In this document: positions 25,796 to 27,493 of the stretch, piece by piece
Layout: each line of letters starts with the position of its first letter
Numbering within the stretch: position 1 is the first letter of the stretch
Assembly (NCBI RefSeq): GCF_055900595.2
Contig: NZ_CM148325.1
DNA length: 64,000 nt
Reading direction: 5' to 3' (one strand)
Position numbers and translations under genes: made by a program
Notes under the pieces: model-generated
The model's input: the letters and a program-made list of their open reading frames with translations, nothing else
Databases searched by the model: none
Told to the model about the DNA's origin: nothing

Positions 25796-27493
25796 TTACG
25801 CAGAAGTACGCATCACACCAATAGTATTAAATTCGTTTTTCACACTGAGCAAACGGGGGTCATGAAGCAAAACATTTGACCATAAATCATTCTCTTTAAT
25901 TAATTGTTGCCAGCGCTTTTCATATTCTTTCTTACCATAAACAGTGTAAATTAACGGCAAGATCACACCATTGATTTTGTTAGTGTTAATATTTGCTAGT
26001 AACTTCATAATGTCATTTTTTATAGATGCGCCATAGATCAGAAACTTCGTATAAAGCGAGTTAACACAGGTGTAATCAAGACCATGTTCAGGCTCAAGTT
26101 TAAGCAATAAACTTTTGGCTTTGTCATTATGTCCTTTCAGTGCCATGAACATAGCCAGAATAGAGGTAATAATTGGATTGTTACAGGTGTTTTGACTGTT
26201 AAGATTTAATGCAAAAGATATCGCGTTATCGAGGGGGGATGTGTAATAAAGTATAATTAATTTAAGAATGCTTATGCCCATTTTATTGGGTTCAAGAGCA
26301 ATGCTTTTTTCTATTAGATTAAATGCTCTTGCAAGGTCACCGTTCAAAAAGCATAGCAGAGACTGATAATAATAAACGTCTGGCGAATTAGGTTTGAGTA
26401 AATGTGCTTGCTTAAATAGCACATTAGACACTGAATCTTCATCTTTTAGCCCACTGATTAAACCCAGTAAACCCAATGCCTGAGAATTTGAAGGGTTAAT
26501 TTCAAGAGCCTTTTCAATGGAGGTTACTGCCGTAGTTATTGCTTGTTTTTGTTCACTGAGTCCAAGGAGTGCTAATGATATATGGCATTCCGCCAGGCAA
26601 CAGTAGGGCAAGGTATTTTGCGGTTGCGTACTCACACAATCTCTAAATATTACTAATGCTCGTTTCAAACTCTCTGGTGTATAACGATACATTTCCATTC
26701 TGCCATTCATATACATAACAGCAGAATCCAGAGATGGCATTTGTTGTGTATTAATAGATTTAAAATTAATATTGGGTATTTTTTCAATAAGAATATTAAT
26801 TACTTGTGATAATAATACGGAAAGAGGATTATCGGGGTTGAAATCAATACTTTGATGATCAATCAATTTATGTGTTCTGGCATGGATTAATTCAATAAAT
26901 AAACGCCAGTTTTTACCATAGTGAACGACCTGACCCATAATATAATATTCTGGACCTGTTTTATTGATAAACTGATGGATAGTGGAGAAATCACTGGCCT
27001 CATTTGTTACCGATGCGGGTAAAATATCTAAACCACAAAAAGCATATTTTGAAAGGCCTTGGACAAGTTCGTAATGGAGTTTTAGAACATTGATCGAACC
27101 TTCAGTACGAAAGGGAAAAACAGCAAGAGTGGTAGTCGACTTTACCGGTTCATTATCGGTTACAATCACAATGGGTACAGTAAAACGGTATCCACGACCA
27201 TAGACCGTTTCGATATACTTACACTGTTTATTCTCATGCAAAAGTTTGCGCAATGCATAAATACACCGTGTTAAAGATTCATCACTGGCAACACTTGCGC
27301 TCCAGACCTTATCAATAATCTCTTCTTTGCTAACAATTTCACCGTCAGCATTAAGCAATAGAATAATAACGCCAAGTTCTTTCGGGGGAATATGATATTC
27401 TTTGTTTTTGAATAATAATATTCCATTGTTTTTTAATACAAAGTCGCCAAATATATATTGTTGTGTATTATTTTTTCCATGTTGCAGTTGCAT
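25796..27493 (-). CDS. eilA: HilA-like regulator: N-terminal OmpR/ToxR-type winged-helix domain plus C-terminal TPR-like region, 565 aa
   Basis: N-terminal 110 aa look like a winged-helix DNA-binding domain (...YGRGYRF); remainder is a long helical repeat region, the HilA architecture. AT-rich. Confidence 0.75.
   Translation of the reverse strand: MQLQHGKNNTQQYIFGDFVLKNNGILLFKNKEYHIPPKELGVIILLLNADGEIVSKEEIIDKVWSASVASDESLTRCIYALRKLLHENKQCKYIETVYGRGYRFTVPIVIVTDNEPVKSTTTLAVFPFRTEGSINVLKLHYELVQGLSKYAFCGLDILPASVTNEASDFSTIHQFINKTGPEYYIMGQVVHYGKNWRLFIELIHARTHKLIDHQSIDFNPDNPLSVLLSQVINILIEKIPNINFKSINTQQMPSLDSAVMYMNGRMEMYRYTPESLKRALVIFRDCVSTQPQNTLPYCCLAECHISLALLGLSEQKQAITTAVTSIEKALEINPSNSQALGLLGLISGLKDEDSVSNVLFKQAHLLKPNSPDVYYYQSLLCFLNGDLARAFNLIEKSIALEPNKMGISILKLIILYYTSPLDNAISFALNLNSQNTCNNPIITSILAMFMALKGHNDKAKSLLLKLEPEHGLDYTCVNSLYTKFLIYGASIKNDIMKLLANINTNKINGVILPLIYTVYGKKEYEKRWQQLIKENDLWSNVLLHDPRLLSVKNEFNTIGVMRTSA

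Follow-up and report, generated by a model that had tools for sequence, protein, structure and literature searches.

The eilA gene of an Escherichia coli eip island: its identity, the hairpin between eilA and the convergent adhesin gene, and a conserved box in its promoter region

The 64,000-nucleotide stretch of contig NZ_CM148325.1 (NCBI RefSeq assembly GCF_055900595.2) analysed here, referred to below as the window, has on its minus strand an open reading frame (ORF) for a protein of 565 residues, which lies between a string of type III translocon genes and a convergent adhesin gene. The locus raises two questions: what this protein is, and whether the single hairpin that separates it from the adhesin gene says anything about a common regulation of adhesin and translocon. 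The ORF, which starts with ATG, is almost certainly eilA; this gene belongs to the E. coli eip island and encodes its activator, a member of the HilA family. Its product matches the NCBIfam equivalog NF009037, ‘HilA/EilA family virulence transcriptional regulator’, with 951.8 bits against a curated cut-off of 589, and the match runs from end to end, with residues 1-552 aligned to positions 2-553 of the 553 in the profile. EilA of enteroaggregative E. coli (EAEC) 042 (NC_017626.1) is identical to it at 562 of 565 residues (99.5%), the three substitutions relative to the 042 allele being N9T, D353H and N503S. An earlier note, written from the letters and without tools, had called the protein HilA-type, and both comparisons agree with that call. 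The 2-kb eilA region finds matches in 730 of 5426 complete E. coli genomes (about 13%) at 90-98% identity, and RefSeq names the gene in these genomes ‘eilA: HilA family transcriptional regulator EilA’. The closest protein cluster, with 4075 members, is 99% identical to the protein of the window, and EilA of E. albertii is 76% identical. Since Salmonella HilA itself was absent from the returns of the word-indexed protein search, the tie to HilA is drawn from the NF009037 model and from PMC4210603.

The AlphaFold model of EilA, calculated with 36 homologues as input, has a mean predicted local distance difference test score (pLDDT) of 82.7 and a predicted template modelling score (pTM) of 0.71. 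It consists of three parts: a winged helix (residues 12-111), an α/β domain (residues 121-238) and a region of helical repeats that contains helices only (residues 255-564). Pfam Trans_reg_C covers residues 31-104 (E 8e-16), close to the N-terminus, and the PDB sequences that match this end of the protein are the DNA-binding domains of CadC, ToxR and PhoB. The closest folds found by Foldseek in the PDB point the same way, with template modelling (TM) scores of 0.84 for the DNA-binding domain of CadC (5ju7) and 0.83 for ToxR (8b4d). Both the position at which the Pfam match starts and the CadC/ToxR fold match indicate a winged helix without a receiver domain. For the middle domain, Foldseek returns the N-terminal domain of TolB (4r40_C) and, at low TM, the periplasmic domain of CadC (3ly7-9). 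The Pfam TPR matches in the C-terminal part are individually weak (E 0.007-0.009); the NCBIfam TPR families PrsT and TOM70 also match this part, and its top Foldseek matches are TPR superhelices, namely consensus TPR proteins, the TPR domain of OGT, Tom70/71 and PilF. The predicted architecture of EilA is that of a receiver-less OmpR/ToxR-type winged helix followed by an α/β middle domain and a TPR-like C-terminus. The winged helix and the long TPR-like C-terminus, both of which the earlier note had read from the translation, are found by profile search as well as in the model.

The gene stands in the usual setting of the eip island, and both gene and context are already known. The island and its regulator were described in 2004 by Ren et al. 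and in 2006 by Sheikh et al. (Mol Microbiol 61:338), whose results are summarised in PMC4210603, PMC7058095 and PMC11068852; the island is the selC-B of PMC7058095. It comprises six genes, eicA-eipB-eipC-eipD-eilA and the convergent eaeX/air, which are collinear with those of EAEC 042 and of strain 2020CK-00188. The eilA gene is on the same strand as the four genes from eicA to eipD (32779 down to 27696) and lies downstream of them, so that it adjoins homologues of SicA, SipB, SipC and SipD, which are type III secretion genes of the SPI-1 type (pathogenicity island 1 of Salmonella). The adhesin gene, named air, eaeX or iatC, runs on the plus strand towards eilA. The island is inserted between nepI and yicS, with selC a few genes away; beyond yicS follow nlpA, yicL, setC and tRNA-Sec (37263-37357), the last being the only match of an Rfam scan of the window. 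This fits the description in PMC11068852, which places the eip island between nepI (yicM) and yicS/nlpA. Identities to the 042 proteins are 97% for EicA, 93% for EipB, 83% for EipC and 95.5% for EipD, and the ORF of eipC (29089-30240) has no family match in the NCBIfam scan. The adhesin is 88% identical to 042 Air over the aligned columns, with 583 gap columns and lengths of 3225 and 3806 residues; length variation in eaeX/air has been attributed to the number of immunoglobulin-like repeats (PMC7058095). A best match of 98% for the eilA region had raised the possibility of an Escherichia other than E. coli. This reading was rejected, since the yicI gene of the window is 100% identical to that of several E. 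coli strains and the eip region reaches 99.1%; the window is E. coli. All sequence-level hallmarks are present, both those of the HilA/EilA family and those of the eip island. The air gene has a guanine plus cytosine (GC) content of 0.47-0.63, eilA and the eip genes one of 0.35-0.40, and since the switch occurs at the hairpin between the convergent genes, the island looks like two joined modules of different origin. EilA is a named and experimentally studied regulator, and its gene is a standard virulence marker in genome surveys of E. coli; the gene itself adds nothing new.

What EilA does is known mainly from strain 042. There it activates eicA, eipBCD, air/eaeX and two genes of ETT2 (type III secretion system 2 in E. 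coli), eivF and eivA (PMC4210603, PMC7058095, PMC11068852). In a Salmonella hilA deletion strain, EilA restores production of SipA and transcription of invF (PMC4210603). Mutants of 042 in eilA and eaeX show reduced adherence and form less biofilm (PMC7058095), and the adhesin, under its name IatC, is a surface-located protein that promotes the formation of biofilm (PMC6714894). Co-regulation of adhesin and translocon is established in 042, for an EilA allele that is 99.5% identical to the one studied here. The EilA of the window would be expected to act on the same set, eicA-eipBCD, air/eaeX, eivF and eivA, and by analogy it would also activate promoters of the invF/prgH type.

The ETT2 apparatus lies outside the window, which makes a working type III part of this regulon no more than possible in this strain. 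The island could be a silent relic, with an intact eilA that has nothing useful to regulate, ETT2 being degenerate in most E. coli. The low-GC composition of the island (35-40%) would favour silencing by H-NS. Attrition of ETT2 by mutation in most strains (PMC7058095, PMC11068852) also speaks for a relic. Such a relic is nevertheless unlikely, for all six island ORFs are intact and EilA has only three residues in 565 that depart from the 042 allele, which is functional. An intact eip locus correlates, moreover, with an intact ETT2 (PMC7058095, PMC11068852), and regulation of the adhesin needs no secretion apparatus.

The earlier note had derived the co-regulation of adhesin and translocon from the hairpin between eilA and air. 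The co-regulation itself is the part that stands, by virtue of the work on 042. The common hairpin is no evidence for it, because a hairpin of this kind marks the ends of transcripts and carries nothing on promoters. Architecture, family and regulon were the valid part of that tool-free reading, and the use of a terminator as evidence of co-regulation was its invalid step.

The hairpin is nonetheless a well-defined element. The stop codons of air and eilA are separated by 51 nt. This gap contains a single structured element, the hairpin, whose distance from the stop codons is 12 nt on one side and 9 nt on the other. Its stem has 12 perfect base pairs at 25758-25785, as had been noted, and extends to 13 bp at 25757-25786, with six GC pairs. 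The 56-nt intergenic stretch folds with free energies of -24.1 kcal/mol (plus strand) and -26.7 kcal/mol (minus strand), at z-scores of -8.4 and -8.1, and none of 200 shuffles folds as well. A terminator scan finds it terminator-like on both strands. Its core, TTGCCCTG...CAGGGCAA, is kept in EAEC 042, in strain 2020CK-00188 and in E. albertii, which fits a functional element, since EilA of E. albertii is only 76% identical and the flanks of the hairpin have diverged there. Most likely, the hairpin stops both the air and the eilA transcripts and would in this way prevent convergent read-through. Its tails, TATTCGTTAT on the plus strand and GTAGTTATTT on the minus strand, tell against a terminator to some degree: they meet a lenient rule of five T in eight positions, neither is a clean U-run, and both are merely moderate. 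These imperfect tails would also suit an element that is not a terminator at all, either a stabiliser of 3′ ends or the junction at which the GC-rich adhesin module meets the module of regulator and translocon. The drop in GC content from 0.47-0.63 in air to 0.35-0.38 in eilA falls exactly at the hairpin, as would be expected of a junction. However, the spacing from the two stop codons is typical of terminators shared by convergent genes, and a stem core that survives in E. albertii between diverged flanks also argues against this alternative, which is accordingly held to be improbable.

At its other end, eilA was placed by the earlier note at the 3′ end of the translocon gene string. As a description of position this is right, the gene being downstream of the string and on its strand; that it forms the tail of the translocon operon is probably wrong. 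The short distance of 202 nt from eipD to eilA, on one strand, is what would be expected if eilA were the last gene of an eicA-eipBCD operon, read through from the eicA promoter and without a promoter of its own. A hairpin lies just after the stop codon of eipD, and in the window strain it is weak, folding only slightly better than shuffles (z -1.9) and having a poor T-tail, which again suits read-through. Its stem, CTGGTC...GACCAG, is kept in 042 and in E. albertii, however, and in E. albertii the same stem has a different loop and is followed by a T-run. The spacer between eipD and eilA, otherwise diverged, also contains a conserved box 75 nt upstream of the eilA start codon. Promoter activity is known for a fragment of 500 bp from upstream of eilA, which drives GFP and is induced in a mixture of lysogeny broth and Dulbecco’s modified Eagle medium (LB:DMEM) (PMC7058095). 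Because of the conserved hairpin, the conserved box and the activity of this fragment, eilA is unlikely to be a mere operon tail, and the chance that it depends on read-through from eicA is put low. The gene is probably a separate transcription unit, which would be bounded upstream by the hairpin after eipD and downstream by the one it has in common with air.

The conserved box, ATGAGCGWWTTTTGATAG, is found upstream of eilA, of eicA and of putative effector genes. The block common to the upstream regions of eilA and eicA, AAAATGAGCG[AT][AT]TTTTGATA, was used for scanning with up to three mismatches allowed; the window has five occurrences where 0.12 would be expected, and none of the shuffles gave as many. 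All the copies of the window are found in EAEC 042 as well. Further 042 copies with at most two mismatches, a level at which about 0.15 chance matches per 50 kb are expected, lie directly upstream of genes for a ShET2/EspL2-family effector, a pentapeptide-repeat protein and a ‘type III effector protein’. A perfect copy in the ETT2 of 042 precedes a hypothetical gene, which is followed by ygeG and ygeH. In the 042 locus there is one more match with two mismatches, at about 50 nt from a perfect copy, and it has no separate target gene. The regions upstream of eilA or hilA-like genes were aligned for the window, 042, E. albertii, Yersinia enterocolitica and one locus that had been retrieved via a protein named E. 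fergusonii; this alignment has a single run of invariant columns, namely the box.

The relatives of the box suggest which kind of protein may bind it. In Salmonella enterica subsp. diarizonae, the block TGGGCGTTTTTTGAATGTT stands between spaS and sicA, 89 nt 5′ of the start codon of sicA, and S. enterica subsp. arizonae has this 19-mer too. The eilA box is identical to this Salmonella block at 15 of 21 positions. For sicA, sopB and sopE, a putative InvF site that overlaps the -35 region has been reported (Darwin and Miller 2001, as summarised in PMC7595419). The MxiE box of Shigella has the consensus GTATCGTTTTTTTAnAG (PMC9769918), with which the eilA box agrees at 12 of 16 positions, although this consensus alone is not discriminating, as eight 17-mers of the window reach at least 12 of 16. 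From these resemblances the box appears to be a candidate site for EivF, an activator of the InvF type, in concert with a chaperone of the SicA type, either EicA or YgeG. Its presence in the eilA promoter region suggests that EivF, together with EicA or YgeG, could feed back on eilA. A result with the proteins of E. coli O157 weighs against this assignment: two MxiE-box genes were not activated when EivF and YgeG were produced together (PMC9241512), so that a role of EivF at such boxes is no more than putative.

The other candidate for the box is EilA itself. As a HilA-type site, it would give autoregulation of eilA and direct activation of both eicA and the effector genes, without an InvF-type step in between. 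The box can be read as two TGA-containing hexamers 11 bp apart (aTGAgc-N5-tTGAta), a spacing that suits tandem binding by OmpR-family proteins. It also precedes eicA, which is an EilA-dependent gene (PMC4210603). However, the pattern scan of the window found no copy upstream of air, which depends on EilA too, and no copy was found upstream of prgH in the SPI-1-like clusters of the Y. enterocolitica contig and of one contig retrieved via the protein named E. fergusonii (L006 and L009); absence before air and prgH argues against a HilA-type site. The homology to the block upstream of Salmonella sicA, a promoter for which an InvF site has been proposed, the resemblance to the MxiE box and the position before effector genes, which is typical of InvF/MxiE regulons, also favour an InvF-type activator. 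A site for EilA is for these reasons regarded as rather unlikely.

If the box is indeed a site for an InvF-type activator, a wider proposal can be made, which is offered tentatively and with somewhat less than even confidence. The HilA-type genes of Escherichia and Yersinia examined here all carry a box of the PsicA/MxiE type: eilA, ygeH (through the promoter before the hypothetical gene and ygeG), and two hilA-like genes, one from Y. enterocolitica and one from the locus of the protein named E. fergusonii. They may all receive feedback from an InvF-type activator and free translocator chaperone, and the box may define an ETT2/eip regulon. If this is true, secretion activity exerts a positive feedback on the top regulator. 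The Salmonella hierarchy has been described as driven by HilD, and the feedback wiring of these HilA-type genes would differ from it. Two orphan paralogues between ilvN and uhpA would then join the ETT2/eip regulon as new effector candidates. A description of the box was not found in the literature searched, Sheikh et al. 2006 being outside that search, and the box may be undescribed. It is the one lead to be taken from this locus, since it offers both a cheap listing of candidate ETT2/eip effectors and a handle on possible feedback to the master regulators of a secretion system that is poorly understood. The features discussed are collected in Table 1.

Table 1. Coordinates of the eip-island features in the window, with the box copies found elsewhere
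Feature	Position	Strand	Evidence or remark
eilA coding sequence, HilA-family transcriptional activator	25796..27493	-	ORF list and translation, NF009037 match, RefSeq naming
EilA OmpR/ToxR-type winged-helix DNA-binding domain, residues 12-111	27161..27460	-	Pfam, PDB sequence matches, Foldseek
EilA middle α/β domain, residues 121-238	26780..27133	-	AlphaFold secondary structure, Foldseek
EilA C-terminal TPR-like helical repeat domain, residues 255-564	25802..26731	-	AlphaFold, Foldseek, weak Pfam TPR, NCBIfam
Hairpin with 13-bp stem and 4-nt loop, candidate bidirectional intrinsic terminator	25757..25786	both	Terminator-like scan, folding
Hairpin just after the eipD stop codon, candidate terminator between eipD and eilA	27642..27664	-	Terminator-like scan
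Box AAAATGAGCGTTTTTTGATA, candidate InvF/MxiE-type (EivF + chaperone) site	27569..27588	-	75 nt upstream of the eilA start codon
Second box copy	32841..32860	-	61 nt upstream of the start codon of eicA; kept in 042 and E. albertii
Box copies before two orphan paralogues	1464-1483, 3072-3091	+	Each about 200 nt upstream of the likely start codon
Degenerate box copy in the setC-selC gap, without a gene behind it	36824-36843	+	Pattern scan
Box copies elsewhere	L003 25512-25528, 37633-37649, 41985-42001; L015 14724-14740		
eicA	32282-32779	-	NCBIfam SicA, SycD/LcrH chaperone match
eipB	30253-32034	-	NCBIfam PRK15374; RefSeq name of the matching gene: YopB/SseC or SctE translocon subunit
eipC	29089-30240	-	RefSeq annotation of matching loci
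eipD	27696-29045	-	NCBIfam SipD/IpaD tip-protein match
Inverse-autotransporter adhesin gene air/eaeX/iatC, 3225 aa	16067..25744	+	ORF; named iatC or air in matching genomes

The orphan paralogues are the ORFs at 1698-2993 and 3284-4732, both on the plus strand. Their products are 26% identical (E 3e-25), have no match in Pfam or NCBIfam, and correspond to proteins annotated as hypothetical in 042. Since a box lies upstream of each, they are candidate ETT2/eip effectors. The EilA homologues encoded on the Y. enterocolitica contig (L006) and on the contigs retrieved via the protein named E. fergusonii (L008/L009) are about 50% identical to EilA. The gene order in these loci is SPI-1-like, with a hilA-like gene, an iagB-like gene, a gene for a LuxR-type regulator and an org/prg operon; pentapeptide-repeat genes lie nearby, and the box precedes the hilA-like gene as well as one pentapeptide-repeat gene.

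A second sequence pattern recurs in the upstream regions. Repeats of the type TTCATCA/ATCATCA lie upstream of air (15980-16008, plus strand), eilA (27597-27621, minus strand) and eicA (about 32925-32945 and 32975-32985, minus strand). The hexamer TCATCA occurs five times in the 704 nt upstream of these three genes, against about 0.46 expected, a count for a pattern that was picked after the sequences had been viewed. Similar repeats are seen upstream of the adhesin gene of E. albertii and of prgH in Yersinia. They may be the site of EilA, that is, a HilA-type site; because the pattern was chosen post hoc, they are treated merely as a lead.

Three other places in and around the island have features of their own. 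Between eicA and eipB, an ORF of 60 residues rich in Lys and Asn lies on the minus strand (32090-32272); it is a hypothetical protein in some genomes and is annotated as frameshifted in EAEC 042. In a Salmonella locus (L013), only two bases separate sicA from sipB, and a gene is thus absent from this position. Between setC and tRNA-Sec, the gap (36624-37262) is only about 640 bp long, and matching genomes annotate a rhuM remnant there, for which reason the gap looks like the scar of a lost insertion on the selC side. Adjoining the island, between yicN and nepI, two overlapping ORFs of 107 and 119 residues lie on the minus strand (13787-14453); at this site, EAEC 042 and strain 2020CK-00188 have an annotated RelE/ParE toxin and a helix-turn-helix antitoxin.

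Among known systems, EAEC 042 is the closest. Its EilA has the same length, the same neighbours in the same order and orientation, the same convergent hairpin and the same upstream box. The two loci differ in the three EilA substitutions, in the longer adhesin of 042 and in diverged alleles of the translocon, EipC above all. In addition, 042 has at least a primase-helicase gene beside the rhuM remnant at selC-setC, whereas the window is without a large insertion there.

In CadC and ToxR, the N-terminal DNA-binding domain matches that of EilA by sequence and by fold, and like EilA they have no phosphoacceptor receiver domain. Both are anchored in the membrane and have periplasmic sensor domains. 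No helix in the AlphaFold model of EilA can be assigned as membrane-spanning, transmembrane prediction not having been run.

YgeH, encoded in ETT2, is a paralogue of the HilA family, and the NCBIfam model for YgeH scores 228.5 bits. It also complements a hilA deletion, and the O157 allele of ygeH is non-functional (PMC4210603). Unlike EilA, YgeH has only 458 residues and a shorter C-terminus, and its gene lies inside the apparatus island; in 042, ygeH too is downstream of a copy of the box, at the end of the series described above. The box has the CG-T-run-GA-AG core in common with the MxiE box and the Salmonella sicA block, and effector genes lie downstream in these systems as well; the MxiE box differs in having GTAT where the left half of the eilA box has AAATGAG.

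HilA of Salmonella SPI-1 belongs to the same NCBIfam family, which EilA matches over its full length, and has the same three-part architecture and the same association with genes of the sicA/sipBCD type. The EilA of 042 can replace it at the Salmonella promoter PinvF, even though the two proteins have only 37% similarity (PMC4210603). The hilA gene lies beside iagB and the prg/org operon in SPI-1, whereas eilA, which also controls an adhesin, belongs to a small satellite island that has no apparatus genes. Transcription of hilA is driven by HilD, HilC and RtsA; the eilA promoter region has instead a box that resembles the one of PsicA.

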